NCBI GenBank assembly: GCA_964580075.1
Contig: CAZOJL010000006.1
Location: 1-54,895 of the forward strand
DNA from: an uncultured Akkermansia sp.
GTDB taxonomy: Bacteria; Verrucomicrobiota; Kiritimatiellia; RFP12; JAAYNR01
Direction of reading: 5' to 3'
Length of the DNA stretch: 54,895 bases
Made by a program: the position numbers and the translations under genes. The notes below the pieces were generated by a model. That model made no database searches, was not told the DNA's origin, and saw only the letters and a list, made by a program, of their open reading frames with translations. The number at the start of each line of letters is the position of its first letter. Within the stretch, counting starts at the first letter, position 1. Below, in pieces: positions 12,345 to 31,338 of this stretch.

Positions 12345-12355
12345 AGGAGCGAACA

Positions 12356-15607: not shown

Positions 15608-15644
15608 GTGAGCTTTGGGAAAAGAACGTGCTGGGAGGTCAGCC

Positions 15645-15815: not shown

Positions 15816-15864
15816 TGATGCTTGGCTGCATTTTGGATTTATTGGATCAGTGAGCGAGGTGGAT

Positions 15865-18666
15865 ATGGATGCTGCTTGGAAATGGAATGGCGCTCGGTGG
15901 TGGAAGTTCGACTGCCACGCCCATACGCCACAGTCGGATTGTTATGGCGAAGGGGACGCCGCGCTCAAGGCGCGCACGCCCGAGGAGTGGCTGCTCGACC
16001 ACATGCGGGCCGGGTTCGATTGCGTCGCCGTTACCGACCACAATTCGGGCGAATGGATTGACCGGCTTCAGGAGGCGGCGGCGAATGAAACCTTGCGGAA
16101 ACATCCCGACTTTCGCGAGTTGGTTCTCTTTCCGGGAGTGGAACTGTTCGTCAACGGCGGGTTCCATGTATTGGCGATTCTGGGCGCGGATAAGACCGGG
16201 GCGGACGTGACGCGCTTGACTGGTGCTTGCGGATACGATTCGGCCAGTGGGGCCACAACCAAGTCTTTTTCCGAAGTTGCCGCCGCCATTGCCGCAACTG
16301 GCGGCGTGGTGTTGCCGGCGCACGTGGATGAACGAGACAAGAAGGGGCTTTGGGCGTTGTCTGACGAAAAAACGTGGCAGCAGGTGTTGGCTGTCAAGAC
16401 GTTGACAGCCTGGGAGGTTATGGATGCCTCCCAGCAACCACCGGACGTGGTTGTCCGATCCGGGCGGCAGTTTACGCGCATCCTTGGTTCGGATAGCCAT
16501 TGTCCCGAAAAAGTCGGCACGCGGTGGTCTTGGGTGAAGATGACCATGCCGAGCATTGGCGAACTGCGTTTGGCTCTGCAAGACGGCGAACTGGCGGTCC
16601 GCCCCTCGGACAAATACCCGGACGATCCGAACAATGTTCTGCCCGCTTTGGCGGTGGAATCCGTCACGGTCACGGATGCCAAGTATTTGGGTCGCACTTT
16701 CAGTGACGGAAGATTGAATACTTTTGCAGCCGCTTTTGGCCCTTGGCTGAATGCCATCATTGGCGGGCGCGGCACCGGGAAGTCGTCGCTGCTGGAATTT
16801 ATGCGCATCGCCTTGCGCCGGGAGGGCGAACTCGCAAAAGCCTTCGATAAGGAACAGATACGCGAAAATTTTGAGCGCTATCGGATAACCGGCGAGAAAG
16901 GTCTCTTGCTTCCGGGCGCCCTTATTCAGATCGTCTACCGGAAGGAAGGGCAGCGTTATCGCATCCAATGGAGCGTTAACGGGAACGCAACGGCCATCGA
17001 AGAGGAAACGCATGGCGGCTGGGTGCGCGCGGACGGCGACATAGCCGCTCGTTTTCCGGCGAGCATCTACAGCCAGAAGCAGTTGTTTGCCCTGGCGGGC
17101 AATCCAGCCGCTTTGTTAGACATCATTGACCAGACACCGGACATCAATCGCCAGGAATGGGATCAGAAGAGAAGCGAATTGGAAGGATCGTTTCTGTCTT
17201 TGCGCGCCAAGGAACGCGAGTTACAGGCACGCTTGACCGATGAAACACGACTGCGCGGAGAACTGGCCGACATCGAGCGACGATTGGCTGTCTGGGAAAA
17301 GAAGGCCACGCGCGACACCTTAAGAGCCTTCCAGCGACTGGCCCAACAGAGGGTTGGGCTGGAAAACTGGACAGCGGCTTTAGACGAAACGGTTGCGCGG
17401 CTCGCCGCTTATCCTGACGCCTTGACGCTGGAGACGCTGAACACCAGCATCTTCGACACCGGAACGCAGAATGAGAAAGCCGTTCTGGATCGGATACAAA
17501 CCACCACCGCCGCCTGGGCAGGCGTGATCAAGGCGGTCCAGACTGGGGCTGTTGATGCCGGGCGGGTGGCGCAGGAATGGAAAACATGGCTGGACCGTTC
17601 GGAATGGAAGAAACAGGCGCAGGAGATTGAGGCGGAATATGCGGGCTTGATTGAGCAATTGGCCGGGGAAGGCGTGGCGGATGCGGCCGACTATGGGAAT
17701 TGGTTGCAACAGAAACAAGCGCTGGAGGCCCGTCTCCGCGCGATTGCCGGTTATCGGACGGAAATTGCGCGATTGCAGGCACAGGCAACGGGCAAGTTGT
17801 CCGAAATTCGATCTCATCGTCGCGACCTGACGGAGAAGCGGCGGCAGTTTCTAAGCAACATACTGGCCACCAACAGTTTTGTGCGCATGGATGTGATACC
17901 TTATGGCGAATTGGATGATGCGCATGGTCAGTTGTCGGAATTGTTGCGCTGTGAAGACGCAAGGTATTCCACGGATGTTACCGGGTTACTGGACAGTGTG
18001 TATTTTCCTGACGGCAAGTCCTACATTTCGACATGGAAAGGCGTGGATGCGAGCCAGAGAATGCAGCTAGAGGAGGACATGGATAAGCGCTTGGTCGCTC
18101 TTAAGAAGCGTATCGGCGATTGCGCATTGGGAACAGTGCCGGAATCGCTTGGCCGTGGTTGGTTCCGGAATAAATTGAAGGATGCCGCGCAATCGCCGGA
18201 AACGCTCAATCATCTCGACCTTTCCTGGCCCGGGGACAGTGTGCATGTCTCCTATGCGAATCCGGCCACCGGCAAGTTCAGCGCGTTGGATCAGGCATCG
18301 CCCGGACAAAAAACGGCGGCTATTCTGGCCTTTGTGCTTTCCTATGGGCAAGACCCCATGATCCTGGACCAGCCGGAGGACGACCTGGACAATCACTGGA
18401 TCTACGAACTGGTGGTTCGCCAGATTCAGGAGAGCAAAAAGCGGCGGCAAATCATCGTCGTCACGCACAATGCCAATATCGCTGTGAACGGCGATGCGGA
18501 ACTGGTGCTCGCCCTGAAGTCGGATGGCGGTCGCACGGAGTACGAAGCGCAAGGCGGTTTGCAGGAAGCGGATGTTCGCGACACTGTCTGTCTGGTCATG
18601 GAAGGCGGCAGGGATGCCTTTGCGCGGCGATACGACCGGATTGTTGGAGGAACAGGACATGTATGA
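15865..18666 (+). CDS. PHP phosphoesterase domain fused to an SMC/Rad50-like coiled-coil ABC ATPase
   Basis: PHP metal ligand motifs FDCHAHTPQS, VTDHNS, FHVLAIL, LPAHVDE, GSDSHCP. Walker A GGRGTGKSS. Long Q/E/R/A-rich coiled coil. SPGQKTAA signature-like motif, Walker B ILDQPEDDLD, IIVVTHNANI. An alternative upstream ATG at 15784 is possible. Confidence 0.7.
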   Translation: MDAAWKWNGARWWKFDCHAHTPQSDCYGEGDAALKARTPEEWLLDHMRAGFDCVAVTDHNSGEWIDRLQEAAANETLRKHPDFRELVLFPGVELFVNGGFHVLAILGADKTGADVTRLTGACGYDSASGATTKSFSEVAAAIAATGGVVLPAHVDERDKKGLWALSDEKTWQQVLAVKTLTAWEVMDASQQPPDVVVRSGRQFTRILGSDSHCPEKVGTRWSWVKMTMPSIGELRLALQDGELAVRPSDKYPDDPNNVLPALAVESVTVTDAKYLGRTFSDGRLNTFAAAFGPWLNAIIGGRGTGKSSLLEFMRIALRREGELAKAFDKEQIRENFERYRITGEKGLLLPGALIQIVYRKEGQRYRIQWSVNGNATAIEEETHGGWVRADGDIAARFPASIYSQKQLFALAGNPAALLDIIDQTPDINRQEWDQKRSELEGSFLSLRAKERELQARLTDETRLRGELADIERRLAVWEKKATRDTLRAFQRLAQQRVGLENWTAALDETVARLAAYPDALTLETLNTSIFDTGTQNEKAVLDRIQTTTAAWAGVIKAVQTGAVDAGRVAQEWKTWLDRSEWKKQAQEIEAEYAGLIEQLAGEGVADAADYGNWLQQKQALEARLRAIAGYRTEIARLQAQATGKLSEIRSHRRDLTEKRRQFLSNILATNSFVRMDVIPYGELDDAHGQLSELLRCEDARYSTDVTGLLDSVYFPDGKSYISTWKGVDASQRMQLEEDMDKRLVALKKRIGDCALGTVPESLGRGWFRNKLKDAAQSPETLNHLDLSWPGDSVHVSYANPATGKFSALDQASPGQKTAAILAFVLSYGQDPMILDQPEDDLDNHWIYELVVRQIQESKKRRQIIVVTHNANIAVNGDAELVLALKSDGGRTEYEAQGGLQEADVRDTVCLVMEGGRDAFARRYDRIVGGTGHV

Positions 18667-19906
18667 CACACGCGAAGAACTGCTGGCAAAGATTCGCCTG
18701 GGAGAGGACACGACCTTTGAGATGAAGGCGGTTGTCTTCGCCGGTAATCAGGTTAGAGGACCGGGACGTGACGAACTGGCTGACGAACTGGCGGCGATCG
18801 CCAATACGTCCGAAGGGGTTTGTCTGTTGGGCATCGACGACAAGAGTCGGGAAGTCACGGGCATTCCCGTCAACCGCCTGGACGCCGTGGAAGCGTTGGT
18901 TCGAGAAGTGCTGAACGACAGTATCGTTCCGCCGCTGACAGCGCGGGTGTTGCGCATGGAGTTGCCCGATTCGCTGGGTGAACTCAAGCCGATCGTGCGG
19001 ATCGATGTTCCGCGCAGTCTTTTTGTGCACCGTAGCCCGCACGGATATTTTCACCGCGTTGGGAGTTCAAAACGCGAACTTTCGCCGGAAATCCTTGCCC
19101 GGTTGTTTCAGCAACGCAGTCAATCCCGGATCATTCGGTTCGACGAGCAGGCGGTGCCCGAGACTTCAATTGCGGACTTGGACACCGCTTTATGGAGCCG
19201 GTTTGTCCGCGATGCGTCCGGCAATGCGGAGGAAATCCTTCGAAAACTGCGGATTGTGACAAATGACGATACCGGGGCAGAGCGACTTTCAGTTGGCGGC
19301 GTGCTGATGTGCACGCGTAACCCGGAACGGTGGCTCAGTGGCGCCCAGATTGAGGCTGTTTGTTACCGAGGGCTCACGCGCGATGCAAACTACCAACTCG
19401 ATGCCAGAACCATCACTGGCCCGCTCGACCGGCAGGTGTTCGATACATTGTCCTTTGTCGCGAAAAACATGCGGCGACCGGCCGTCAAAGACCCGGCGCG
19501 GAACGAGGTTCCGGAATACAGCGAACGCGCGTTATTCGAGGCCATCGTCAATGCGGTGGCGCATCGCGACTATTCGATTCACGCTTCACGAATACGCTGC
19601 TTTATGTTCGAGGATCGTGTCGAAATCTATTCGCCGGGGCCGCCGCCCAATAGCGTGACCGTGGAAAGCATGCCATTGCGACAGGCTACACGAAACGAAA
19701 TGGTTGCGTCACTGCTGTCCAATTGCCGTGCCGCCGGCGTTGCAGGCGGACTCGGCAGGACTTTCCTGATGGAGAAGCGTGGGGAAGGCGTGCCGATCAT
19801 CATGAACGAGAGCCTTCGATTGTCAAATCGGAAGCCGGAATATCAACTTATAGATAACACGGAAATCATGCTTTCCATCTGGGCCGGCAAGAGCGCCGTC
19901 GCGTAA
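18659..19906 (+). CDS. AlbA_2 (Schlafen-like) domain plus HATPase_c_4 (GHKL-like) protein
   Basis: Start overlaps the upstream stop (ATGTATGA). N-terminal TFEMKAV..LAAIANTSEGVCLLGIDD (AlbA_2-like). C-terminal EAIVNAVAHRDYS..DRVEIYSPGPPP (HATPase_c_4-like). Confidence 0.7.
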   Translation: MYDTREELLAKIRLGEDTTFEMKAVVFAGNQVRGPGRDELADELAAIANTSEGVCLLGIDDKSREVTGIPVNRLDAVEALVREVLNDSIVPPLTARVLRMELPDSLGELKPIVRIDVPRSLFVHRSPHGYFHRVGSSKRELSPEILARLFQQRSQSRIIRFDEQAVPETSIADLDTALWSRFVRDASGNAEEILRKLRIVTNDDTGAERLSVGGVLMCTRNPERWLSGAQIEAVCYRGLTRDANYQLDARTITGPLDRQVFDTLSFVAKNMRRPAVKDPARNEVPEYSERALFEAIVNAVAHRDYSIHASRIRCFMFEDRVEIYSPGPPPNSVTVESMPLRQATRNEMVASLLSNCRAAGVAGGLGRTFLMEKRGEGVPIIMNESLRLSNRKPEYQLIDNTEIMLSIWAGKSAVA

Positions 19907-19910
19907 CCGC

Positions 19911-20027
19911 GTTGATCCCGCAGCGGATACGTCGGCGTGGGAGCGGGAGATCGACCAACAGGTTTACGCCCTTTACGGCCTGACGGAGGAGGAGATCAAA
20001 ATCGTGGAGGGGAGCACGCAACGATGA
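19911..20027 (+). pseudogene. Orphan 3' end of a second PglX/type IIG-like methyltransferase gene (tail copy B)
   Basis: Translates VDPAADTSAWEREIDQQVYALYGLTEEEIKIVEGSTQR-stop. Homologous to 10370-10480. Its TGA overlaps the ATG of the PIN gene. Confidence 0.75.
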
Positions 20028-20521
20028 ACAAGGATAGAAAAATGAGACCGAAAGTCTATTTGGAAACGAGCGTGGTGAGTTACCTGGCGGCACGACCGAG
20101 TCGCGACCTGGTGGTCGCGGCGAATCAGGAAGTGACGCGGGAATGGTGGGCAAATGCACAAGAACGTTTGGATTTGTTTCTGTCTGAAATTGTTTTGAAG
20201 GAAATCGCGGCGGGCGATCGTGTTGCGGCGGCTGAACGTAAACGCTATCTTGTGAAAGTGCCGCTCTTGCCGTTGAACCTCGATGCGCGAGCTTTGGCGG
20301 ATCGCTATCTTGCGGCAAGGATTATGCCGGCAAAGGCGGCGACCGATGCCCTGCATATTGCCTTGGCGACGGTGCACGGCATGGATTACGTGGTCACATG
20401 GAACTGTGCGCATATCGCCAATGCCCTTACGCAAAAGGCCATTGCCCGGATCAGCAGCGAAGGCGGGTATGAACCGCCCGTGATCTGTACGCCTTTGGAG
20501 TTAATGGAGGACGAAGCATGA
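20024..20521 (+). CDS. PIN-like (VapC-family) toxin
   Basis: MNKDRKMRPKVYLETSVVSYLAARPSRDL..ATDALHIALA..VVTWNCAHI. Matches a widespread PIN-like family that has Glu in the first acidic position. Confidence 0.55.
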   Translation: MNKDRKMRPKVYLETSVVSYLAARPSRDLVVAANQEVTREWWANAQERLDLFLSEIVLKEIAAGDRVAAAERKRYLVKVPLLPLNLDARALADRYLAARIMPAKAATDALHIALATVHGMDYVVTWNCAHIANALTQKAIARISSEGGYEPPVICTPLELMEDEA

Positions 20522-20766
20522 AACCAGACCCGATTGTGGCGGAAGTCCGTAAAGTGCGGGAAGCGCATGCCCTGCGGCATGGAAACGATCTTCGAAGAAT
20601 CTATGCGGATATGAAGAAAGCCGAGGCTCGGGATCATTGGCCACAGGCGCAAGTTCGCGTGCAATCGCCCGTTCGCGCTTGCGTGGCGGAGGATTCCGCC
20701 CAGTATGTTGCGAAGAAGGGGCGTAGTGCCACCAGGCACGCGCCAAGCGATACTGGCGGAGCTTAA
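20518..20766 (+). CDS. Small partner protein of the PIN-like toxin (putative antitoxin)
   Basis: 82-aa ORF with ATGA overlap to the toxin. The N-terminus DPIVAEVRKVREAHALRHGNDLRRIYADMKKAE resembles partners found downstream of this PIN family. Confidence 0.4.
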   Translation: MKPDPIVAEVRKVREAHALRHGNDLRRIYADMKKAEARDHWPQAQVRVQSPVRACVAEDSAQYVAKKGRSATRHAPSDTGGA

Positions 20767-20861
20767 CGAACGCATTGGAGCGCGAGATCGACCAGCAGGT
20801 TTACGCCCTCTACGGCCTGACGCCGGAGGAGATTAAGATTGTGGAGGGGACGGTAAAATGA
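20767..20861 (+). pseudogene. Orphan 3' end of a third PglX/type IIG-like methyltransferase gene (tail copy C)
   Basis: Translates LEREIDQQVYALYGLTPEEIKIVEGTVK-stop. Differs from the intact gene's tail at five synonymous third positions only. Confidence 0.75.
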
Positions 20862-20898
20862 GAAACATACTTTTGCCCGGCAATACAGGAGGTTCCAT

Positions 20899-22107
20899 AT
20901 GACAACGCCCGTTTTTATTAAGCGCGTGGTGCTGAATAATTATAAAAGCATCAAAGAGTGTTCCGTCGCCCTGGGGCCGCTCACGTTTTTGGTAGGCCAG
21001 AACGGCGCGGGGAAGAGTAATTTTCTCGATGCGTTGCGACTGGTGACAGACGGACTGAACACCTCCCTTGAGCATGCCTTGCGGGAGCGCGGCGGCATTA
21101 ACGAAGTCCGGCGCCGTTCTTCGGGGCATCCCACGCATTTTGGCATCCGGCTTGAGTGGGTTCTTCCCAACGGAAGCGAAGGCGTTTATGCGTTTCGGAT
21201 TGGTTCTCAGAAGAAGGGCGGCTTTGAAGTTCAGCGCGAAGAGTGCCGCGTTTTCGAGCCGGATCGGGTGCAGGTGAGTTTCTACAAGGTGGAATGCGGG
21301 GTTCTGAAGAGTTCGAATTTCGAGGTCGCGCCGCCGACTTCGAGCGACCGGCTCTATCTGGTTTCCGCCGCCGGACTTCCGCCGTTCCGTCCGCTTTACG
21401 ATGCGTTGTCGCACATGGGGTTCTACAATCTGAATCCTGACGAGATCCGCGAACCCCAGCCGCCGGATCCGGGCGAGGTGCTTAAGCGGGACGGCAGTAA
21501 TCTGGCCAGCGTACTGGGACTGCTTGAAAAGGGCGGGGTTGAGCGGATTGTCGAGTTGCTGTCGAAGGTTGTCCCGGGGATACAGAATATTGAGGTCAGG
21601 CATGTCGGCAAAAAGGAAACACTGGAGTTCCGGCAACAGGTGGGTAAGAATAAAGACCCGTGGCGGTTTATGGCGGAGAATATGTCGGACGGTACATTGA
21701 GGGCGCTGGGAGTACTTACTGCGCTGTTCCAGTCCTCTAAGGCGGACGGCAAGCGGGTTCCTTTGGTTGGAATTGAGGAGCCCGAAACCGCTGTTCATCC
21801 CGGCGCTGCCGGTGTGCTGCGGGACGGGTTGCGGGCGGCTGCCGAGCTTACTCAAACCATTGTAACCAGTCACAGCCCGGATCTTCTGGATGACAAGGAA
21901 ATTGCCGATGAACACATTTTGGCAGTTATGAACCGGAATGGTGAAACCCTGATCGGCCCGCTGGACGACGCGGGCAGAACGGCAATTCGCCAACGTCTCT
22001 ACACGGCAGGGGAACTGCTTCGCTTGAATCAGATGGAGCCGGATCAGGATGTAATAAGCAAGGTTTCTTCGAATCAACTGGAGCTGTTTTCAGAGTACAA
22101 GCCATGA
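20899..22107 (+). CDS. AAA_15/AAA_21-type (RecF/SMC-like ABC) ATPase
   Basis: Walker A GQNGAGKSNFLDAL, Walker B-like LVGIEEPETAVHP, H-loop IVTSHSPDLLD. No nuclease domain recognised. Confidence 0.7.
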   Translation: MTTPVFIKRVVLNNYKSIKECSVALGPLTFLVGQNGAGKSNFLDALRLVTDGLNTSLEHALRERGGINEVRRRSSGHPTHFGIRLEWVLPNGSEGVYAFRIGSQKKGGFEVQREECRVFEPDRVQVSFYKVECGVLKSSNFEVAPPTSSDRLYLVSAAGLPPFRPLYDALSHMGFYNLNPDEIREPQPPDPGEVLKRDGSNLASVLGLLEKGGVERIVELLSKVVPGIQNIEVRHVGKKETLEFRQQVGKNKDPWRFMAENMSDGTLRALGVLTALFQSSKADGKRVPLVGIEEPETAVHPGAAGVLRDGLRAAAELTQTIVTSHSPDLLDDKEIADEHILAVMNRNGETLIGPLDDAGRTAIRQRLYTAGELLRLNQMEPDQDVISKVSSNQLELFSEYKP

Positions 22108-22234
22108 CCGAGATCTGCATACAAGCAATTTGATATGGTTGCCGCTCGGCGGGCCGATTCCTTTGACAAGTGTTACAGGGAAATCCACAAAATGCTTTCG
22201 GCCTTGCGACAGACCGTAATGGATTGAGAAATCA

Positions 22235-23989
22235 ATGAGCGACACAATCCGACAGCCTATCGCCCGCTGGACCGCCGCCGAAGAAGGTCAATTCTTCGAA
22301 CGGAAGTCGGCGTTGGATCGTTCATCCGGGCGCGTGAAACCGCGCAAGGCGGCGGAAATCGCGCATGACATTGCTGAAACGGTTTGCGCCATGGCCAATG
22401 CCGATGGTGGGGAACTCGTGGTCGGCATGGAGGATGATGGGGCGATTTCGGGAGTTCCGCACGCCGAGGACAAACTGCAATTGTTGTTGGGTGTGCCGAA
22501 GGACCGGAACTACGTGAACCCGCCGCTGCCTTGCCGATCCCGCAAGGTGGTCTCCTCGGACGGATTGGTTCTCCTGCATTTCGAGGCGGATTGGAGTCCA
22601 GCCGTTCACCTCCTGGCCGACAGCCGGTGCCTATTGCGCGTGGACGACACCAATTCGCCATTCGCGCCCGACAAGGTGGGCGCATTGAAGGCGGCCAAGG
22701 CTCAGGGCCTTCTTGAACGCTCCTTTCCTCCCGGCGCACAAATGGAAGACCTCGATCTGGACTTGGTATCCACCGAATTGGGCAAGGTCTGGCCGGGTTT
22801 GTCGCCGGAGGCTGTTTTGCGACGGTACGGACTCATCGCGGGCCGCAACGGGCATTCCGTGCCAACGCTGGCGGCGCTGCTGTTGTTTGGCCGAGAACCG
22901 ACTCGCTGGCATCCCCGATGTGGTCTCGATTTCATTCGTTGGGAAGGCACGCAGGGCAAGACCGGTTCGGAGTTGAACATCGCCAAGCGGATTCGTATAG
23001 AAGAACCGCTGGCGGTGCTGATCCGCAAGGCGCGCGAAGCGATTCATCCCTTCATCCGGGAACGTCAACATCTGCACGACCTGTTCTTTGTCGAAAAACT
23101 CGAATACCCGACGTTTGCCTGGCAGGAGGCCATCGTCAACGCGGTGGCGCACCGGGATTACAGCCTGCAAGGCGCGCCGATCGAGGTCTGGATGTACGAC
23201 GACCGTATGGAGATTCGCAGCCCTGGCATGCCTCCCGCGCCGGTTACGGTCGATGCGCTGAACCATCGCAAGCGCGTCCATCTCTCCAGGAATCCCATAC
23301 TGGTTCGGGCGCTGGCAGACCTGCAGTATATGCGGGACGTCGGTGAAGGAGTTCCACGTATCTTCGACGAAATGGACCGCGCCGGTTGCTATCCGCCAAG
23401 GTTCGAGATCATCGGCGGATTTGTGTTTCAGTTGACGTTGCGCAACGAACCGGTCTACGACCGCAAGACCCTGGATTGGCTCAAGCAGTTCACCGATGTC
23501 GATCTGTCAGGTGACCAGAAGCGTATGCTTGCCTACGCCCATGCTCATGGGGAACGGTTCACCAGCCGGGAATTCCAGAAGGTCATCGGCACGGACATCT
23601 ACGGCGCCTCGAACGCGATCAAGGACATGATCCGCAAGGGGGTGGCTAAATCCACCGAGAAGGGCAGTCGGGTCTATGGGATTCACAAGCCATTACGAGA
23701 GCAGCCCGGCATGCCGACGGAACTCCGACAACTTCTTCCATTGCTTAGGAAGAAGGGACGCCTGGCCAATCAGGATGTACGGAAGATCTGTGGGCTGACG
23801 AAGATCACGGCCGCGCGTCTCCTGCGCGAACTCACGTCAGGGCAATGGCTTGCGGGAACGGGGAAGCGGGGTGCAGGTGCGTGGTACTCCGCTGGTCCTC
23901 GTCTATTGTCTCAGTCTCAAACTAGTTCGGAAAGCCGTGAGACTGATACAATGAGCCATGAGGCTGATACAATGAAAAAGCGAAAGTAG
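22235..23989 (+). CDS. AlbA_2 (Schlafen-like) plus HATPase_c_4 (GHKL-like) plus C-terminal wHTH-like protein; paralog of 18659-19906
   Basis: FFERKSAL..VCAMANADGGELVVGMEDDG (AlbA_2). EAIVNAVAHRDYS..DRMEIRSPGMPP (HATPase_c_4). C-terminal basic helical region. Confidence 0.7.
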   Translation: MSDTIRQPIARWTAAEEGQFFERKSALDRSSGRVKPRKAAEIAHDIAETVCAMANADGGELVVGMEDDGAISGVPHAEDKLQLLLGVPKDRNYVNPPLPCRSRKVVSSDGLVLLHFEADWSPAVHLLADSRCLLRVDDTNSPFAPDKVGALKAAKAQGLLERSFPPGAQMEDLDLDLVSTELGKVWPGLSPEAVLRRYGLIAGRNGHSVPTLAALLLFGREPTRWHPRCGLDFIRWEGTQGKTGSELNIAKRIRIEEPLAVLIRKAREAIHPFIRERQHLHDLFFVEKLEYPTFAWQEAIVNAVAHRDYSLQGAPIEVWMYDDRMEIRSPGMPPAPVTVDALNHRKRVHLSRNPILVRALADLQYMRDVGEGVPRIFDEMDRAGCYPPRFEIIGGFVFQLTLRNEPVYDRKTLDWLKQFTDVDLSGDQKRMLAYAHAHGERFTSREFQKVIGTDIYGASNAIKDMIRKGVAKSTEKGSRVYGIHKPLREQPGMPTELRQLLPLLRKKGRLANQDVRKICGLTKITAARLLRELTSGQWLAGTGKRGAGAWYSAGPRLLSQSQTSSESRETDTMSHEADTMKKRK

Positions 23990-23992
23990 GCC

Positions 23993-26800
23993 ATGCCCAC
24001 CCACGACATCATAGACAACCGGACCGAGAAACTGGTTGACCACCTGTCCCAGATGCTCGGATCGACCGAACGCGCCCGGTTCGCGGTGGGCTACTTGTTC
24101 CTGTCCGGCCTGACGAGCGTTGCGAAACGGCTCCTGAACTTGAAGGATTTGCGCCTGCTCATCGGCAACACGACGAACCGCGAGACGGTCGAAATGCTGG
24201 CCGAAGGCTACCGCCGGATTGATCTGGCTGCAGAGGAAGTCGAGAAGCAGGTTTATCCGAAGCGCACTGAGGCCGGCAAAATGGCGCAGGAGACCGCCGG
24301 GAATCTCCGGAACACCGTCGAGTTGATGGACCAAACAGACGAGGCGCAGGATCTGATTGCCGGGCTGATTCGGATGATCGAGGAGAAGCGACTCAAGGTC
24401 CGCGTCTTCACGAAGGGCCGCCTTCACGCCAAGGCGTACATCTGCGACTACGGGAAGGTGTTCGACTTGCTGGGCAAGGAGATTGACCGGCATGAAAGAG
24501 GGATCGCCGTAGTGGGGTCTTCCAACTTGACATTGGCCGGGCTTACCCACAACACCGAGTTGAATGTTGTCGTTCAGGGTAACCAGAATCACGGCGAACT
24601 GGTCCGCTGGTTCGATGACCTCTGGAAAGAGGCGCAAGAGTTCGACGACACGCTGATGGCCGAGCTCAAGGAGTCCTGGGCGGCGGCGCAGGTCCGGCCT
24701 TACGACATCTACATGAAGACCCTCTACGCCCTCGTGCGCGACCGGTTGGAGAGCGAGGACGAAGCGGAATTGCTTTGGGATGATGACATCTTCCGCAAAC
24801 TGGCGAGTTTTCAGAAGGTGGCCGTGCGGCAGGCGGTGCAAATGACCCGTGACTTCGGCGGGGCGTTTGTGTCCGACGTGGTAGGTCTGGGCAAGAGTTA
24901 CATCGGCGCGGCGATCGTGAAGCACTTCGAGCGCACCGACCACGCGCGCCCGCTGATCATCTGCCCCGCCCCGTTGGTGGAGATGTGGGAGCGGTATAAC
25001 GAGGTTTATCAACTCAACGCCCGCGTCCTTTCAATGGGGTTCTTGCGCGAGGACGAACAGGATGGCGTCACCCGGATGCTGAACGACATCAAGTTCAAAG
25101 ACCGGGACTTCGTCCTTGTGGATGAGAGCCATAATCTCCGACACCCGGACACGCAGCGTTACAAGATCGTGCAAACCTTCCTTTCGACGGGGCGGCGGTG
25201 CTGTTTCCTGACCGCAACACCCCGGAACAAGAGCGCCTGGGACGTTTACCACCAGATCAAACTGTTTCATCAGGACGACCGCACCGACTTGCCGGTGGAC
25301 CCGCCGAACTTGAAGGAATACTTCAAACTGATCGACAAGGCCGAACGGAAACTCCCGGACTTGCTGGCGCATATCCTCGTTCGCCGGACCCGGCAACACA
25401 TCCTACGCTGGTATGGTTTCGACGCCGAGACCCACGAACCGGTTGACCCGAACCGCTTTCAGGAATACCTCCAGGGCACGCGGAAGGCTTACGTGTTGGT
25501 GGGCGGCAAACACCAGTTCTTCCCAAAACGCGAACTGGAAACCATCGAGTACAGCATCGAAGACACCTATCAGGGACTTTATCAGGAGTTGCGCGGCTAT
25601 CTGGGCAGGGGTGGCACAGGCATTCCTGCCTGTGTACCACAGACAAGAATGTCTGTGCCACCCTCCTCAACCATCGAAGTCATCTTCAGCGGCGACAAGA
25701 GCAAGGAGAAGGTTGTCGGCCGCTTCGCGCCCAAGGCGAACCCGGAGTATCGCTTCGCCAAGGACGAGGCAGAACTGATGATGGTGATTGCCACCGACGT
25801 TCTTGCCGAAGGCTTGAACCTTCAGGACTGCGACAACATCATCAACTACGACCTGCACTGGAACCCCGTCCGGCTGATTCAACGTTTTGGGCGCATTGAC
25901 CGTATCGGCTCGGAACACGAACGCATTTTCGGCTTCAACTTCCTGCCTGAAACCAAGCTCGACAAGAATCTCGGCCTCAAAGACAAATTGCACAACCGCA
26001 TTCAGGAAATACACGACACCATCGGGGAAGATTCGGAGATTCTTGACCTGACTGAGAAGCTCAACTCGGAAGCCATGTATGCGATCTATGAGACTCGTGG
26101 AGGCGCTCCAGTCCAACTGGACCTGTGGGGCGGCGCTGACGACGAGTTCCTTGACCTGAACGAGGCCGAGGAAATCCTGCGACAGTTGCGGAAGGACAAT
26201 CCCGACGAGTACGAGCGCATCGCCAGTCTGCGCGACGGCATCCGTACCGCCCGGCCGTCGTTGCAACGCGGCATGTACGTCTTCTGCCAAGCCGGGCGGT
26301 TTCAGCAGTTGTTCCTGCTCGACGACAAGGGCGCTGTGATCTCCCGGGACGTGCCCAAGGTGGTCGGCGCGATCAAGTGCGCCCCCGACGCTAAAGCCGC
26401 ACCATTACCAGAGGGCTACAACAAGGCGGTCATGGCGATTCAACGCAAGTTCGCGGAGGATGTCCGGCGCCGCGAGGCCGAGCGGACCTACACGGCGAAC
26501 CTGACTCACGGCCAACTCTACGTTTTGCGGGAACTGCGAATCCTGTTTGAAGCCACGGAAGACGAAGATATCAAACAGAACGTCAACGTCTTAGAGAAGG
26601 CCTTCCGGGGGCCGCTCACCGGCACGGTGAAGCGTGAACTCAACCAGTTGCGACGGAACTCGGTGACAGGTGAAGGGCTGCTCAAGAACCTGGCTCGAAT
26701 GTATGATCGGCACAATCTGAAGGACGCCGCCGCCCAACGGAGCCTCGGCATGGCGGACAGGGCCATTCCTCGGATTGTCTGCAGCGAGGCTTTTGTCTGA
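23993..26800 (+). CDS. PLD-family (HKD) nuclease domain fused to an SNF2-family helicase, helicase C-lobe probably damaged
   Basis: HKD motif GRLHAKAYI..VGSSNLT. SNF2 motifs VVGLGKSY (I), LVDESHNLR (II), LTATPRNKS (III), ATDVLAEGLNLQ, QRFGRIDRIG (VI). A palindromic repeat is embedded between YQELRGYL and IEVIFSG, where the first strands of the RecA2 lobe are expected. Confidence 0.8.
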   Translation: MPTHDIIDNRTEKLVDHLSQMLGSTERARFAVGYLFLSGLTSVAKRLLNLKDLRLLIGNTTNRETVEMLAEGYRRIDLAAEEVEKQVYPKRTEAGKMAQETAGNLRNTVELMDQTDEAQDLIAGLIRMIEEKRLKVRVFTKGRLHAKAYICDYGKVFDLLGKEIDRHERGIAVVGSSNLTLAGLTHNTELNVVVQGNQNHGELVRWFDDLWKEAQEFDDTLMAELKESWAAAQVRPYDIYMKTLYALVRDRLESEDEAELLWDDDIFRKLASFQKVAVRQAVQMTRDFGGAFVSDVVGLGKSYIGAAIVKHFERTDHARPLIICPAPLVEMWERYNEVYQLNARVLSMGFLREDEQDGVTRMLNDIKFKDRDFVLVDESHNLRHPDTQRYKIVQTFLSTGRRCCFLTATPRNKSAWDVYHQIKLFHQDDRTDLPVDPPNLKEYFKLIDKAERKLPDLLAHILVRRTRQHILRWYGFDAETHEPVDPNRFQEYLQGTRKAYVLVGGKHQFFPKRELETIEYSIEDTYQGLYQELRGYLGRGGTGIPACVPQTRMSVPPSSTIEVIFSGDKSKEKVVGRFAPKANPEYRFAKDEAELMMVIATDVLAEGLNLQDCDNIINYDLHWNPVRLIQRFGRIDRIGSEHERIFGFNFLPETKLDKNLGLKDKLHNRIQEIHDTIGEDSEILDLTEKLNSEAMYAIYETRGGAPVQLDLWGGADDEFLDLNEAEEILRQLRKDNPDEYERIASLRDGIRTARPSLQRGMYVFCQAGRFQQLFLLDDKGAVISRDVPKVVGAIKCAPDAKAAPLPEGYNKAVMAIQRKFAEDVRRREAERTYTANLTHGQLYVLRELRILFEATEDEDIKQNVNVLEKAFRGPLTGTVKRELNQLRRNSVTGEGLLKNLARMYDRHNLKDAAAQRSLGMADRAIPRIVCSEAFV
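25610..25662. repeat. REP-like palindrome, in frame inside the PLD-SNF2 ORF
   Basis: GGTGGCACAGGCATTCCTGCCTGTG..CACAGACAAGAATGTCTGTGCCACC. Same family as 8867-8925. Translates GGTGIPACVPQTRMSVPP. Confidence 0.8.
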
Positions 26801-26851
26801 CGCGACGGCATCTGCGAATTGCCATGCAAGCGATATGGATGAAGTGCAGTT

Positions 26852-27880
26852 GTGAATAGGCGCATATCAAACACCGCCGAAGACCGTTTGCTGGTGGCCC
26901 TCCAGAAGGGACTGCCACTCGAGGCGCGGCCTTTTGCCCGTATCGGCGACGACCTCGGCGACGACCTCGGATTGACCGAAGAGTCCGTGCTCGCCCGGGT
27001 TCGAGGGCTTTTCGAGACCGGCGTGGCGCGCCGGTTCGGCGCGGTGTTCGACTCGCAGAGCCTCGGCTACGAAAGCACCCTCTGCGCAGCCGAGGTGCCG
27101 GCGCCTGACGTGGCGCCGGCCGTCGCCCGGATCGTTCCGCATCCGGGCATCACCCACTGCTACGAACGGGAAGGCCACCCCAACCTGTGGTTTACCCTGA
27201 CCGCGCCGGCGGACGCGCTGCTGGCGGAACTGGCGCGCGTCTCGTCCGCCTTGGGCCGTTATACCGTGCTCAACCTGCCGGCGTTGCGCAAGTTCAAAAT
27301 AGAGGCCGTGTTCGGGCAACAGGCGGAGGCTCCCGTCCCGCGCGCCAAGTCCTTCGCGCCGACCGGAACCGCCGCCCCGCTCACGGCGCGCGAGCGGCAG
27401 GTCGTGCGGCGCCTGCAGGCGAACCTCGCTGTCGACGCCGACCCGTTCGGCGTCCTGGCACAGGAACTCGGCTTCGCCCCCGCCGATCTGCTCGCGCTGC
27501 TCACGCGGTGGGAGGCCACCGGGGTGATCCGGCGCATCGGCCTGATCCTGCGTCACCGGGAACTGGGCCTTGCCGCCAATAGCATGTGCGTCTGGGCCGT
27601 CGCCGCCGATCGGATTGAGGCCGCCGGCGCGTCCATGGCGCGCAGCCCGCACGTCTCTCACTGTTATGAACGCCCGTCGTTCGAAGCCTTCCCCTTCAAC
27701 CTGTATGCCATGATCCACGCCACAACGCGCGCGGAGGCCGTCGGCTTTTTTGAACGGCTCGGCTCGGACGCCGGACTCGCCGACGGGCGCATGCTGTGGT
27801 CGGCCCGCGAGTTCAAGAAATCAAGCCCCGTGTTTTTCTGCGAACCGTCTCCCGCGCTCGAAAGGCCAGGTCCGGCATGA
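26852..27880 (+). CDS. ahbAB: Fused siroheme decarboxylase (AhbA/AhbB, NirD/L-like)
   Basis: 342-aa ORF with a GTG start. Two tandem Lrp/AsnC-like halves (LQKGLPLEARPF.. and LQANLAVDADPF..), each followed by a CYER motif, as in NirDL/AhbAB. Confidence 0.7.
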   Translation: MNRRISNTAEDRLLVALQKGLPLEARPFARIGDDLGDDLGLTEESVLARVRGLFETGVARRFGAVFDSQSLGYESTLCAAEVPAPDVAPAVARIVPHPGITHCYEREGHPNLWFTLTAPADALLAELARVSSALGRYTVLNLPALRKFKIEAVFGQQAEAPVPRAKSFAPTGTAAPLTARERQVVRRLQANLAVDADPFGVLAQELGFAPADLLALLTRWEATGVIRRIGLILRHRELGLAANSMCVWAVAADRIEAAGASMARSPHVSHCYERPSFEAFPFNLYAMIHATTRAEAVGFFERLGSDAGLADGRMLWSAREFKKSSPVFFCEPSPALERPGPA

Positions 27881-28701
27881 GCGCGCGCACCGGCATCCTG
27901 TTTGCCACGCCCGGCTCGACCTGCCCCACGGCGGCGGACGTGTACGATCATCTGGAGCGCGCGGCTTCCCACCGCTTTCCGGGGGTGACCCCGCATTGGT
28001 GTTTCACGTCGGGGCCCGTCCGCCGCAAACGGGCCGAGCAAGGCCTCCCCGCGCAAGACCCCGCGACGGCGCTCGCCGTGCTGCAGGCCGAGGTCTACAC
28101 CCATGTGGCGGTCATGCCCCTGCATCTTGCGAATGGACTGGAGTTCCGCGAACTGGCCGAACAGGTGAGCGCTTGGGCACACCGTCCGGGTACCGCCCTG
28201 ACGGTGGCGATGGGGCATGCGCTTCTCACCTCCGACGCCGACTGGAAACGCACGCTCCAGGCCCTGCTCGCGTCTCTGCCGCAGGCGCCCGGGGAACACG
28301 ACCGGGTCATCCTGGCCGTGCACGGCAGTCAAGATCCCGAGGGACAACGCACGCTCCGGGAGGCGGCCCGCCTCTGCGGCACGGTTGACCCGCGCCTCAT
28401 GCTGGGCATGCTGCTCGGGAAGCCCGACCTGGCCGACGTGCTGCGCGCCTGCACCGCGGCCGGCGTGAGGAAAGCCTGGCTGCTTCCCTGCATGATGGTG
28501 GCCGGATACTCGGCTCGCGAGGTGATCACCGGAAGCGGCGAACAGGCGTGGGCCGTCGCCCTGCAACGCGCCGGCATCGAAACGATCCCCGTCCTTCGGG
28601 GGCTGGGCGAGATTCCCGGTGTCGTCGCCGTCTGGATGGATCACCTCGAACACCTGCTGGCCGCGCTGGCCGCGCCGCCCCAACACCCGGAGAGCCCGTG
28701 A
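27877..28701 (+). CDS. CbiK-type sirohydrochlorin chelatase (likely ferrochelatase in this context)
   Basis: ATGA overlap. GILFATPGS..WCFTS, PLHLANGLEF and ILAVHGS match the CbiK pattern. Sits between ahbAB and sirC. Confidence 0.6.
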   Translation: MSARTGILFATPGSTCPTAADVYDHLERAASHRFPGVTPHWCFTSGPVRRKRAEQGLPAQDPATALAVLQAEVYTHVAVMPLHLANGLEFRELAEQVSAWAHRPGTALTVAMGHALLTSDADWKRTLQALLASLPQAPGEHDRVILAVHGSQDPEGQRTLREAARLCGTVDPRLMLGMLLGKPDLADVLRACTAAGVRKAWLLPCMMVAGYSAREVITGSGEQAWAVALQRAGIETIPVLRGLGEIPGVVAVWMDHLEHLLAALAAPPQHPESP

Positions 28702-29228
28702 TGCGCAATGAAACTGTGACACGTCCGATTCTACCCGTCAGCCTGCTGATTGCGGGCAAACGCTGCCTCGTCGTGGGCGGGGGGCAGATCGCCACGCGTA
28801 AAACGGGACACCTGCTGGATGCGGAAGCCGACGTGACGGTGGTCTGTCCGGACGCGTCCGAGGCGATCGCCACCCTCGCGCGCAGCGGCAGAATCAGGCT
28901 GGTATTGCGCGCCTTCTCCGAATCCGACGTGACGGGGCAGTATCTGGTGTTCGCGACGACCGACAACCCGGACGTGAACCGACGTGTCATCGCGTGCTGC
29001 CACGCGCAGGGCGTGCTGTGCAGCGCCTCCGACAGCAACTGGCCGGATGGCGATCTCGTCGTGCCGGCCATCTGCCGGAAGCACGGCGTGGTGGTTTCGG
29101 TTGCCACGGGGGGCCGGTCATGCCGGCTGGCACGCCACGTGAAGGACAAGATCGCCGAATGGCTGACATCCCTGACGGACGAAACAAGCGGGAGAGACAA
29201 TCATGACGACAGCCAGGATGACGTTTAA
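28701..29228 (+). CDS. sirC: Precorrin-2 dehydrogenase (SirC / CysG N-terminal domain-like)
   Basis: LPVSLLIAGKRCLVVGGGQIATRK Rossmann motif typical of siroheme synthase N-domains. Stop/start overlap with the upstream gene. Confidence 0.75.
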   Translation: MRNETVTRPILPVSLLIAGKRCLVVGGGQIATRKTGHLLDAEADVTVVCPDASEAIATLARSGRIRLVLRAFSESDVTGQYLVFATTDNPDVNRRVIACCHAQGVLCSASDSNWPDGDLVVPAICRKHGVVVSVATGGRSCRLARHVKDKIAEWLTSLTDETSGRDNHDDSQDDV

Positions 29229-31338
29229 GGCCGGGACGCGGAGCAGTCCGCTGGCCCGGATTCAGACCCATGACGCGCTGGCCCGGATAACGGCGTGTTT
29301 GCCGATGTGCGCGTTTGTGGAGGTGCCCATCTCGTCGCCGGGAGACCGCGATCAGGCGACGGACCTGCGTGAAAGCCCGGCCGATTTCTTCACACAGGAT
29401 CTCGACCGTCAGGTGCTGGACGGCGAACTCGACTGTGCCGTGCATAGCGCCAAGGACCTGCCCGATCCGGTGGCGGCGGGGCTGGACTGGTGCTGGTTGC
29501 CCTGGCGGGAGGATCCCCGCGATGTGCTGGTTCTGCCGCGCGGCCGGAGTCTGACCGAGTTCACCCCCGGTTTCACAATCGGAGTCAGCAGTGAGCGCCG
29601 CGCGGCCTACTGTCGCTCCCGCTTCCCCCAGGCCCGCCAACAGCCGATCCGCGGCACGATCGAGGATCGGCTCCAGCAGGTAGATCGACACGACTTCGAC
29701 CTGATCATCATGGCGGGCGCCGCCCTCAATCGCCTCGGCCTGCAGGATCGTTGTAGCGAATGGATCCCGGCCCACGCGCTGCCCCCGCCTGACGGACAGG
29801 GGTCGCTGGCGCTGACGTTCCGCGCCAACGATGCGCGCTTTCAGCACATCCGCCGGTTGTTTGTGAGCAGCGTGACGTTCGCTGCCGCGGGCGCGGGATC
29901 GGCCGGCGCCCTGACGCGCGACGCCCTCCATGCCCTGGAGCGCTGCGACGTGTGCCTGCACGACACCCTCCTCGGCCACGATGTGTTCGATCTGCTGCCG
30001 CCAACCGTGAACTGCATCGATGTCGGCAAACGATGCGGCAAGCACAGCACGCCGCAGGACGAGACGACCTACCTGATCACCCGCTACGCGCGCCGCGGCC
30101 TCACCGTCGTGCGGCTCAAAGGCGGCGACCCGGGGATCTTTGGCCGGCTGGCGGAAGAGGTCGATGCACTGGACGCCCTCCACCTGCCCTACCGTGTGCT
30201 GCCGGGTGTGAGCAGCATGAGCGCCGCCACCTCGGGCACCGGCATGTTGCTCACGCGGCGCGGCGTCTCGCGCGGGTTCACCGTGCTGACCCCCCGCACG
30301 GAGGGGGGCGGCATCGGCTCCGTGGCCGCGGACGAACGCCGCCGTCTGCCGCTGGTCTTCTTCATGGCCCTGTCCGTGGCGGACGACGTGGCCCGCCAGT
30401 TGATCGGCGAGGGCATGTCCCCGGAAACACCGGCAGCGGTCGTGTTCGCCGCCGGCAGCGACCAGTCGCGCATCCTCGCAGGGACGCTGGCCGACATTGC
30501 AGCGCGCATTCAGGCCGCGGAAACCGGGCAGCCCGGCCTGCTCATCGTCGGCGAAGCGGCAACGTACCGCTACCGGAATTGGGGCGCCCTGGAGGGGCGC
30601 CGGGTCCTGCTGACCGCCAGTCAAGCCCTGCAGGACAAAGCGGCGGATCGGGTTACGGACTGGGGCGGAATCCCCGTGTGCCGTCCCCTCTTCAAACTGG
30701 AAGCCACGTCCGACGCGCTGGACGCCATCCGCCGGATCAGCACCTATGACTGGGTCGTCCTGACGTCTCCCTCGGCGGTACGCTGCTTCGGCGAGCTGCT
30801 GCAACGCGCCCGGATCGATTTGCGCACCGTCCCGTACCTGGTCACGTGCGGCGGAGGCACGTCACACGCGCTCGCGCCCCTGAGGCTGAAGGCCGACATC
30901 GCCCCGTCCTCGCAGTTCAGCGCGGACAGCCTCCTCGACACGGTCAAACCGCTTGTGAAACCGGGTCTGCGCATCCTGAGATTGCGCTCGGACAAGGCCG
31001 GAACCGGGTTGGCCCAAGCCCTGCGCGCCCAGGGCGCCCAGGTGGACGATGTGCTGCTGTATCGCAACCTGCCGATCCCGCAGGCCGAGAAGCCCGATTT
31101 CGAGGTGGCCTTCTTCGCCAGCGCCTCCGCCGTCGAAGCCTATGCCGCGCAGTGGGGCGTCGCCACGCTGCAGGGCACGGTGGTGGTCGCGATCGGCAAG
31201 CCCACCCTGACCGCCCTGCAGACCTGCGGCGTCACGGCAGACCTGGTGCCGCCCGAGGCGACCGTCGAATCGAGTTTCGCGTGTCTGGCCGAATACTGCG
31301 TCCGTCACAACCTGGCCGAGACTCATTCAGGACCTTGA
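29203..31338 (+). CDS. Triple fusion: HemC-like domains 1-2 (no domain 3), uroporphyrinogen-III C-methyltransferase (CobA/SUMT), and uroporphyrinogen-III synthase (HemD)
   Basis: N-terminus GTRSSPLARIQT, AVHSAKDLP, SSERRAAY, IRGTIEDRL (HemC signatures). Then AAAGAGSAGALT..CLHDTL..LKGGDPGIFGR..LPGVSS (SUMT). The C-terminal roughly 240 aa is HemD-like. Confidence 0.7.
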   Translation: MTTARMTFKAGTRSSPLARIQTHDALARITACLPMCAFVEVPISSPGDRDQATDLRESPADFFTQDLDRQVLDGELDCAVHSAKDLPDPVAAGLDWCWLPWREDPRDVLVLPRGRSLTEFTPGFTIGVSSERRAAYCRSRFPQARQQPIRGTIEDRLQQVDRHDFDLIIMAGAALNRLGLQDRCSEWIPAHALPPPDGQGSLALTFRANDARFQHIRRLFVSSVTFAAAGAGSAGALTRDALHALERCDVCLHDTLLGHDVFDLLPPTVNCIDVGKRCGKHSTPQDETTYLITRYARRGLTVVRLKGGDPGIFGRLAEEVDALDALHLPYRVLPGVSSMSAATSGTGMLLTRRGVSRGFTVLTPRTEGGGIGSVAADERRRLPLVFFMALSVADDVARQLIGEGMSPETPAAVVFAAGSDQSRILAGTLADIAARIQAAETGQPGLLIVGEAATYRYRNWGALEGRRVLLTASQALQDKAADRVTDWGGIPVCRPLFKLEATSDALDAIRRISTYDWVVLTSPSAVRCFGELLQRARIDLRTVPYLVTCGGGTSHALAPLRLKADIAPSSQFSADSLLDTVKPLVKPGLRILRLRSDKAGTGLAQALRAQGAQVDDVLLYRNLPIPQAEKPDFEVAFFASASAVEAYAAQWGVATLQGTVVVAIGKPTLTALQTCGVTADLVPPEATVESSFACLAEYCVRHNLAETHSGP

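Follow-up and report, generated by a model that had tools for sequence, protein, structure and literature searches.

The window analysed here, a stretch of 54,895 nucleotides (nt) from an uncultured Akkermansia sp. (contig CAZOJL010000006.1), contains at positions 7400–26800 an island of defence-related genes which is likely to be a single restriction–modification (R-M)-like locus, consisting of a two-gene core that has decayed and of cassettes embedded between the two core genes. The first core gene, here termed MT (7400–10480, + strand), encodes a type IIG-like N6-adenine methyltransferase (MTase), and the second, HEL (23993–26800, + strand), an HKD (phospholipase D, PLD) nuclease fused to a SNF2 helicase. 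A first-pass annotation of the same DNA, made without database searches, had described positions 20767–26800 as the remains of a four-gene modification-dependent system (MTase, AAA ATPase, AlbA_2/GHKL/winged helix-turn-helix (wHTH) protein and PLD-SNF2 helicase) whose own MTase had been lost. That module is the last cassette block of the island together with the core helicase.

Co-occurrence of MT and HEL in related loci

A scan with HEL, restricted to one genome per species, yielded 188 relatives, the best 80 of which (57–93% identical to the HEL of the window) were analysed; these originated from Verrucomicrobiota, Lentisphaerota, Planctomycetota, Nitrospirota, Desulfobacterota, Acidobacteriota, Chlamydiota, Chloroflexota and Cyanobacteria. 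Domains were called with Pfam and defence models with PADLOC, and named families were tested at the curated cut-offs of NCBIfam. An MT homologue was located upstream of HEL and on the same strand in approximately 30 of the 36 HEL loci for which 10 kb of upstream sequence was available. The distance between the MT stop and the HEL start varied from 25 nt (L038, with MT at 6563–9976, HEL at 10001–13378 and no embedded genes) to more than 6 kb, and amounts to about 13 kb in the window, where MT ends at 10480 and HEL starts at 23993. The reciprocal scan, with the MT N-terminal domain as a query, gave 42 MT-family loci with enough flanking sequence, 37 of which had a HEL-family neighbour: in 21 HEL was downstream, and in 16, representing a distant subtype, a HEL-like gene (27–30% identity) was placed upstream on the same strand. 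This distant subtype was seen in Cyanobacteria, Chloroflexota, Candidatus Kuenenia and Bdellovibrio, and its MT is devoid of the first ~ 100–175 residues (L249, L250, L259, L266, L269, L276, L283).

No conserved gene was detected downstream of HEL or upstream of MT in the 60 downstream and 25 upstream flanks checked. The open reading frames (ORFs) in the gap between MT and HEL were hypervariable, with 79 singleton families and few shared ones across the 80 HEL loci. Because the two genes co-occur while the content of the gap varies, MT and HEL can be regarded as the constant unit and the gap as a hotspot for embedded, unrelated defence cassettes. The gap cargo in relatives included HEC-01 A and B (L013, L027), PDC-S01 (L008 and its relatives) and a DRT UG21 reverse transcriptase (L014); in the window, Ppl, AbiU and an OLD-like ATPase had PADLOC or Pfam matches. 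Three blocks have accumulated in the gap of the window, namely 10593–19906, a PIN-domain gene with an 82-amino-acid (aa) ORF, and HEC-01 with a Schlafen-HisKinase-wHTH gene. The island as a whole stands out by a lower G+C content (0.52–0.60 over approximately 7400–26800, versus 0.60–0.69 in the flanks), which begins exactly at MT and ends exactly at HEL, and all of its long ORFs are on the + strand.

The Pfam domains Eco57I, N6_Mtase and TaqI_C were found in the MT of the window and in intact homologues (PADLOC REase_MTase_IIG, 1e-42). The first ~ 490 aa of MT were 73–89% identical between loci, as opposed to a strongly variable TaqI_C recognition half. HEL, recognised by Pfam (PLDc_2, SNF2-rel_dom, Helicase_C) and PADLOC, is among the most conserved proteins of the locus and displays an HKD motif (H145, K147; a single copy), GSSN at 175–178, Walker A (GKS, 300–302) and DESH (377–380). 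Sequence searches of the PDB with both proteins returned only generic SNF2/RapA and M.TaqI matches. The earlier proposal that the PLD-SNF2 protein belongs with such an MTase in an R-M-like system agrees with the co-occurrence of the pair in relatives, and Pfam confirmed the domains that had been assigned to the three genes of the module.

Deletions and hairpin elements in both core genes

The HEL of the window is 935 aa long, against ~ 1115 aa in all 80 homologues. Approximately 180 aa are missing between the RecA lobes, including the first half of lobe 2 (KRLIFTQYADTAKYL...), and the Helicase_C profile was matched only from position 64 (2–110 in homologues). The MT ORF is open and encodes 1026 aa, but is short of ~ 159 aa that include the S-adenosylmethionine (SAM)-binding motif I; alignment with L011 and L005 defined the missing segment as DPAVGSGAFP...IYGVDIQP, and the Eco57I profile was matched only from position 51, versus 1–171 in intact homologues. 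Since MT is without SAM motif I and the motor without part of lobe 2, the R-M-like pair is, judging by the sequence, almost certainly inactive in the source organism. With a toxic R-M pair, loss of both halves is the usual course of events. The two deletions uphold the previous description of the locus as a remnant.

A double hairpin resembling repetitive extragenic palindromic (REP) elements was present in each of the two genes, in MT at 8864–8929 (+ strand; fold -26 kcal/mol, z -6.5) and in HEL at the deletion junction at 25609–25664 (+ strand; DNA fold z -5.3). The copy in MT replaces 543 nt present in L011, with a net loss of 477 nt, and the copy in HEL spans 57 nt (GGTGGCACAGGCATTCCTGCCTGTG..CACAGACAAGAATGTCTGTGCCACC); both are the same element in the same reading frame. 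In L001, a metagenome-assembled genome (MAG) of Verrucomicrobiota with a helicase 92% identical to that of the window, the ORF is open at 1139 aa and contains two hairpin copies (6360–6420 and 6966–7022), one on either side of the segment that the window lacks. The HEL of the window corresponds to the left flank of L001, one element and the right flank of L001, and all four hairpin copies in the window and L001 read GTGIPAC..QT.MSVPP. On the strength of this two-copy state, we attribute the HEL deletion to recombination between two in-frame insertions; compared with the single copy of the window, L001 shows in what way a short in-frame repeat can at first be tolerated by a defence gene and later delete its catalytic core. 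The deletion in MT is organised identically, but no locus with an intermediate state was found. An assembly artefact was rejected for the HEL deletion, as the identical 935-aa product was called on 21 contigs from independent assemblies.

A further palindrome of different sequence, GC-rich and 60 nt long, is located in frame in MT (8408–8470, + strand; fold -28 kcal/mol, z -4.8). It adds 20 residues (LPAAPPACAATADRNAAQA) that are absent from homologues, and there is no deletion at this site.

The hairpin sequence GTGGCACAGRCATTCYTGYCTGTG was also encountered in L081–L200, often in many copies per genome, both in MAGs and in isolates of Planctomycetota, Acidobacteriota (Bryobacteraceae, Solibacteraceae), Ignavibacteriota/Kapaibacterium, Verrucomicrobiota and Eisenbacteria, and often as +/- pairs 35 or 52 nt apart. 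Such a near-identical short repeat across phyla is unusual for REP elements. Rickettsia palindromic elements, reportedly described by Ogata et al. in 2000, are short palindromes lying in frame within protein genes. Like these and like REP/MITE-like (miniature inverted-repeat transposable element) repeats, the hairpin described here sits in frame in genes whose ORF stays open; unlike the Rickettsia elements, it is ~ 57 nt long and double, has exact copies in several phyla, and mediated the loss of catalytic parts from two genes.

Many MT-family genes on long contigs (P0010, P0011, P0035, P0062; L020, L033) stop at ~ 450–500 aa, which corresponds to the start of the MTase half and to the site of the MT deletion in the window. 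Some loci may encode the MT N-terminal domain as a protein of its own; alternatively, these genes may be additional broken copies.

Proposed mode of action and the Schlafen protein next to HEL

In an intact locus, MT would recognise a short sequence via its variable TaqI_C-type half and methylate host DNA. HEL would be an ATP-driven motor which, having a single HKD motif, would therefore need to dimerise to build one PLD active site. At unmethylated sites MT would recruit or license HEL through its constant N-terminal part, the conserved ~ 490 aa being the likely coupling surface, and HEL would cut DNA after translocation.

Several points weigh against a self-contained pair acting in this manner. 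The mechanism is inferred by analogy with type I, ISP and III enzymes and with MtsC/MtsD of the MANTIS system, and approximately 5 of the 42 MT-family loci had no HEL homologue within reach. The N-terminal domain of MT (aa 1–336) produced an AlphaFold2 model with a pLDDT (predicted local distance difference test) of 78 and no Foldseek match in the PDB at E <= 1e-3, and the region had no conserved E-x-K among 48 homologues; this domain may itself contain a nuclease or serve another function. Finally, an AlbA_2 gene is located 3–17 nt upstream of HEL in the window, L004, L005 and L015, an adjacency that could reflect an optional functional link rather than pure cargo.

The AlbA_2 protein of the window (22235–23989, + strand) matched SLFN_AlbA_2 (1.8e-11) and HATPase_c_4 (7.8e-22), with MarR_2 (wHTH) below the Pfam cut-off. 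It retains the predicted catalytic motif E17-x4-E22-x-K24 (EGQFFERK, residues 17–24) and is of the same length as its homologues in L004, L005 and L015. By these features it is predicted to be intact and to have the prokaryotic Schlafen (pSlfn)-HisKinase-HTH architecture, a known embedded effector. HisKinase-HTH fusions constitute 19% of pSlfn proteins (10.1101/2025.07.24.666596), with which the window protein has in common SLFN_AlbA_2, HATPase_c_4, a wHTH and the E-x4-E-x-K motif; in contrast to the architecture of the window, the pSlfn proteins tested for defence carried other fused domains (DUF262, Ig-like) (10.1101/2025.07.24.666596; PMC12839542). The same literature already reports the architecture as widely embedded in BREX and BREX-related loci; the first-pass annotation had taken the AlbA_2/GHKL protein to be no part of DISARM or BREX as known to it.

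This protein could be an optional third component or regulator of MT and HEL, for instance a back-up RNase triggered upon inhibition of the core or a wHTH repressor of HEL. Such a role would fit its position directly upstream of HEL (3 nt in the window; also L004, L005 and L015, with distant versions in L010 and L027), the DNA homology that extends from the 3′ end of the gene into HEL in L005 and L029, and the close link of the architecture, seen in at least 1017 taxa, with the core loci of BREX and of BREX-related systems (PMC12839542). We nevertheless consider it unlikely, given that AlbA_2 proteins were found in only about six of the 80 HEL loci, that a second, diverged copy (18659–19906) follows Ppl, away from HEL, and that this architecture is also widespread away from such loci (10.1101/2025.07.24.666596).

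Orphan ends of MT and HEL

At the head of both the second and the third block of the window lie the terminal ~ 30 codons of a foreign MT gene. A family of 98-nt direct repeats comprised three copies, at 10374–10471, 19915–20012 (86%) and 20752–20849 (81%), and a tblastn search with the last 45 aa of the MT ORF recovered the same three places only (E 1e-24, 6e-15 and 4e-13). Tail A (10376–10471), identified from the repeat family and alignment, is the true 3′ end of MT; tail B (19917–20027; 36 codons and a stop) and tail C (20772–20861; 29 codons and a stop), supported by the repeat family and tblastn, are orphans, all three being on the + strand. Tail C translates as ALEREIDQQVYALYGLTPEEIKIVEG-TVK-stop, in which ALEREIDQQVYALYGLTPEEIKIVEG is identical to the real MT tail in 26/26 residues, and tail B as PAADTSAWEREIDQQVYALYGLTEEEIKIVEG-STQR-stop, with 30/32 residues identical to tail A. 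The orphan MTase 3′ end that the first-pass annotation had seen at the start of its module, at 20767, is therefore genuine (a copy of 78–100 nt, at 20772–20849), and its assignment to a type IIG-like N6-adenine MTase is correct; the MTase itself has not been lost, as MT is present at 7400–10480 in the same low-GC island.

Tail C differs from tail A at 6 positions in 78 nt, all synonymous, and tail B at 14 positions in 96 nt (9 synonymous and 2 non-synonymous codons), giving 15 synonymous and 2 non-synonymous codons for both orphans together. Since the differences are almost all synonymous, the tails appear to have diverged inside working MT genes and not after a local duplication. The nearest match of tail B was the tail of L046 (88.5%), and that of tail C the tail of L011 (91%), followed by an orphan tail of L038 (90%). 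The left ends of B and C are 5 codons apart within the tail, and the stop of tail B and the start codon of the PIN gene overlap (ATGA). In the last 25 aa of MT the mean pairwise identity was 0.43, compared with ~ 0.2 over the 275 aa before them; the last ~ 25 codons thus form a conserved stretch that closes an otherwise hypervariable target-recognition half. Across phyla, both the 5′ end of HEL and the last ~ 30 codons of MT were 70–93% identical.

Extra MT tails or orphan 5′ ends of HEL were observed in at least 12 other loci. The former were found in L008, L034, L035, L038, L041, L042, L061 and L070, with 3–4 tails in L035, each just upstream of a small ORF, and the latter (orphan HEL heads) in L007, L038, L046, L061, L066 and L071; in L061 an orphan head abuts an orphan tail. 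This suggests that cassettes are imported together with the gene ends of a donor MT, and the recurrence of such tails and heads provides a testable idea of how defence systems become embedded.

Cassettes would be acquired by recombination, with either the conserved HEL gene or the MT tail as the anchor, the other end of the cassette being joined illegitimately with a piece of the donor MT tail carried along. Homology-facilitated recombination is favoured here because no recombinase was found and because the left ends of B and C differ. In a tentative extension of this reasoning, which we regard as possible rather than probable, the MT/HEL pair would be an unnamed, widespread two-gene R-M-like system that also serves as a recombinase-free platform for cassettes, its gene ends acting as portable homology arms between unrelated bacteria and the orphan tails and heads being the scars. 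Two considerations count against the proposed route: it is deduced from scars only, and the left junctions of orphan tails are poorly mappable, the region upstream of the MT tail being hypervariable.

The tails could alternatively be local scars, left by repeated replacement of MT or by unequal crossing-over within the lineage. They are indeed direct repeats in a single orientation, and in L038 a complete MT-HEL pair is preceded by an orphan tail and an orphan head, which could be read as the traces of an earlier copy that was overwritten. This explanation seems quite unlikely: the tails are only 81–86% identical to tail A in DNA yet match it in 26/26 and 30/32 residues in protein, a contrast unlike that expected from recent local duplication and neutral decay; each of them is closest to a different foreign locus; and tail B retains its ATGA overlap with the following PIN gene. 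Two other mechanisms were rejected. An integron-like or other site-specific cassette array is at odds with the absence of integrase and transposase domains from the island and with the different left ends of B and C. Programmed inversion (a shufflon) of the MT 3′ end does not fit copies that are direct and comprise only the last ~ 30 codons, without the target-recognition domain.

HEC-01 and the four-gene reading

The ATPase of the module (20899–22107, + strand; Pfam AAA_21, AAA_15 and SMC_N) matched HEC-01A (PADLOC PDLC04178, 3e-162, 538 bits), residues 1–398 aligning to positions 1–395 of the 399-position profile, and is predicted from this alignment to be intact. HEC-01 is a two-gene candidate system composed of an ABC ATPase and a TOPRIM protein, with no activity against the phages tested (10.1101/2024.01.29.577857). 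L013 encodes an ATPase with 89% aa identity to that of the window, then HEC-01B (1.5e-70), and HEL comes immediately after this pair without an intervening AlbA_2 gene; PADLOC confirmed HEC-01B in the partners of both L013 and L027. In the window, alignments with L013 and L010 revealed a HEC-01B (TOPRIM) remnant at 22103–22234 (+ strand), in which the first 8 codons (MTEICIQAI) are joined out of frame to the last ~ 30. As 488 nt of HEC-01B are missing relative to L013 in the DNA alignment, the window holds half of HEC-01. The window-type HEC-01A was found in one of the 80 HEL loci (L013), and distant HEC-01A-like ATPases in four more (five in total).

These results alter the earlier description of the module considerably. 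Its three genes are real, but the set was incomplete, having missed the HEC-01B remnant, the ~ 180 aa absent from HEL and the MT ORF; the ATPase, which had been taken for a dedicated component, is half of HEC-01; and no conserved four-gene arrangement exists among the 80 HEL loci, the outcome that the first-pass annotation had itself named as refuting its reading; L027 alone has MT, HEC-01A-like ATPase, HEC-01B, AlbA_2 protein and HEL together, as distant homologues. That tail C, the ATPase, the AlbA_2/GHKL/wHTH protein and the PLD-SNF2 helicase are one dedicated four-gene modification-dependent system that lost its own MTase is consequently very unlikely: in favour of it, the elements are contiguous and co-directional with short spacers, L027 has all the corresponding genes, and L010 has HEC-01B, an AlbA_2 protein and HEL in this order; against it, the combination occurs in only 1–2 of 80 loci, as distant homologues with an extra TOPRIM gene, the ATPase is HEC-01A from end to end and its L013 counterpart stands with HEC-01B directly before HEL without an AlbA_2 gene, a deleted HEC-01B lies between the ATPase and the AlbA_2 gene of the window, and the island opens with an MT gene of the family to which the tails belong. 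Neighbouring defence genes that follow a fragment of another gene need not be one system.

Comparison with known defence systems

The locus is not DISARM, BREX, Hma or MANTIS. Neither DrmA (a DUF1998-associated helicase) nor DrmB was found among the 13 island genes or as a conserved neighbour in relatives, and a full-length HEL homologue scored 149.8 bits with the NCBIfam model DISARM_DrmD (cut-off 610) and 93 with DrmD_b (cut-off 950). Class 1 DISARM (DrmA, DrmB, DrmC, DrmD, DrmMI) has SNF2, PLD and N6-adenine MTase domains in common with the pair, and the DrmD models match HEL partially; unlike in DISARM, PLD and SNF2 are fused in one protein, HEL. No PglZ or BrxC was found in the island genes (by Pfam, and among the PADLOC matches listed), and the NCBIfam PglX models of BREX-1, -2 and -6 reached 25–53 bits versus cut-offs of 400–900. 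With scores far under the curated cut-offs, DISARM, BREX and the NCBIfam family 'phospholipD_antiphage' were rejected; the first-pass annotation had excluded DISARM and BREX correctly, on the lack of DrmA/DrmB, PglZ and BrxC.

Hma, whose components include a DUF499 ATPase and an MTase of the m5C (or DUF1156) type (PMC8565338, PMC12839542), was rejected because its MTase is different and HmaA matches only the helicase C region. No DUF499 AAA+ ATPase (HmaC/MtsA) was detected in the island, nor conserved beside MT/HEL in the 60 downstream and 25 upstream flanks. With MANTIS, the Gao_RL or Type-2 DUF499-centred BREX-related system (MtsA-D), the pair shares an N6-adenine MTase that marks self and an effector in which an N-terminal HKD/PLD domain is fused to an SF2/SNF2-type ATPase (10.64898/2026.09.23.753747, PMC12839542). 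The order of PLDc_2 at the N-terminus of HEL, SNF2-rel_dom and Helicase_C equals the type 2 HKD-SF2/SNF2 arrangement, a likeness of architecture only. MtsD is a dimeric PLD-SF2 protein related to SauUSI (10.64898/2026.09.23.753747), and the single HKD motif of MANTIS implies a dimeric active site, as proposed for HEL. In contrast to MANTIS, a small MtsB protein was found neither in the window nor as a conserved neighbour, and MT differs from the MANTIS MTase by its Eco57I/TaqI_C (type IIG-like) domains and large conserved N-terminal domain.

MT shares Eco57I, N6_Mtase and TaqI_C with type IIG (Eco57I/MmeI-like) enzymes, and its best PADLOC match was REase_MTase_IIG. Classical type IIG enzymes cut with an N-terminal PD-(D/E)XK nuclease of their own and do not require a helicase partner; here, an HKD nuclease domain is carried by the partner of MT, HEL, and neither a nuclease fold nor a nuclease motif could be assigned in the N-terminal domain of MT. 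The best PADLOC models for full-length homologues were generic, namely C3a139 'HKD+Snf2' (273 bits) and type IIG models (<= 200 bits). Two loci in which a Cj0031-like type IIG gene adjoins a PLD+SNF gene, in both gene orders, are given in one table of PMC9881135, which was the only earlier mention of MT/PLD-SNF pairs found in the literature. Both gene orders were also present among the MT-family loci of this study.

Embedding of defence cassettes is known for Hma, BREX, DISARM and type I R-M (10.1101/2024.01.29.577857). The present island resembles those cases in having unrelated cassettes, in the same orientation, between the genes of a multi-gene system, while the MT/HEL host system is none of the four surveyed there; that study left the origin of embedding open and did not describe orphan tails or heads (10.1101/2024.01.29.577857). 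The core can be placed among the R-M-like systems as a variant not seen before, whereas its cargo belongs to known or candidate systems and embedding itself is an established phenomenon. Neither the scars nor the deletions mediated by hairpins are described in the literature cited. Of the distinct R-M-like architecture that had been suggested previously, the R-M-like character is retained, in the form of a type IIG-like MTase with a PLD-SNF2 partner, and the four genes are not. None of the named NCBIfam families tested was matched by the MT/HKD-SNF2 pair above its curated cut-off. The pair occurs in many phyla (Verrucomicrobiota, Planctomycetota, Nitrospirota, Desulfobacterota, Acidobacteriota, Chloroflexota and Cyanobacteria) and is a candidate minimal ATP-dependent R-M-like system.

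Island layout and embedded genes

The island interrupts a heme/siroheme (ahb-type) biosynthesis cluster, the two parts of which occupy 2862–7368 and 26852–31338 of the window. The upstream part includes hemA (2862–5027) and two radical-SAM genes ending at 7368, and the downstream part an NirD/L-type siroheme decarboxylase gene starting at 26852 and hemC/cobA/hemD (29203–31338). A tRNA scan of the window detected no tRNA gene, giving no indication of tRNA-linked integration; Pfam domain calls revealed no integrase or transposase among the island genes, and the borders are marked by no tRNA, integrase or repeat. A promoter and terminator scan of 19800–27000 returned sites no more numerous than in shuffled sequences.

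Gene calls in the island were cross-checked on identical contigs. The first embedded block (10593–19906, + strand), defined by Pfam, PADLOC and these gene calls, encodes an OLD-like ABC ATPase (10593–12344), a DUF5131 protein with ~ 80 aa missing (12356–12841), AIPR/AbiU (12900–14789), a tetratricopeptide repeat (TPR) protein (14786–15607), Ppl (15865–18666; 2e-140) and a Schlafen-HisKinase (AlbA_2/HATPase_c_4) protein without wHTH (18659–19906), all on the + strand. Judged by sequence, the OLD-like ATPase, AbiU/AIPR, Ppl and the Schlafen proteins look intact. The second block (20024–20766, + strand) was delineated by gene calls and contains a PIN-domain protein of 165 aa (20024–20521, + strand; Pfam PIN, 1.7e-5) and the 82-aa ORF (20518–20766, + strand), which together look like a toxin–antitoxin pair. 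Neither this pair nor DUF5131 had relatives among the 80 HEL loci.

Internal deletions of 240–540 nt were observed in four island genes, namely MT, HEL, HEC-01B and DUF5131, those in HEC-01B (junction at 22126/22127) and DUF5131 being plain ones. The DUF5131 ORF is 161 aa long and skips positions 75 to 157 of the Pfam profile; its deletion junction near 12578 is clean and without a palindrome.

An AlbA_2/Schlafen-HisKinase gene directly followed an ABC-ATPase defence gene (Ppl, HEC-01 or OLD-like ATPase) in four places: 18659–19906 and 22235–23989 in the window, 6472–9996 in L005 and 4819–8506 in L027. This order could be due to chance, ABC ATPases being the commonest cargo, or could represent a recurrent pairing.

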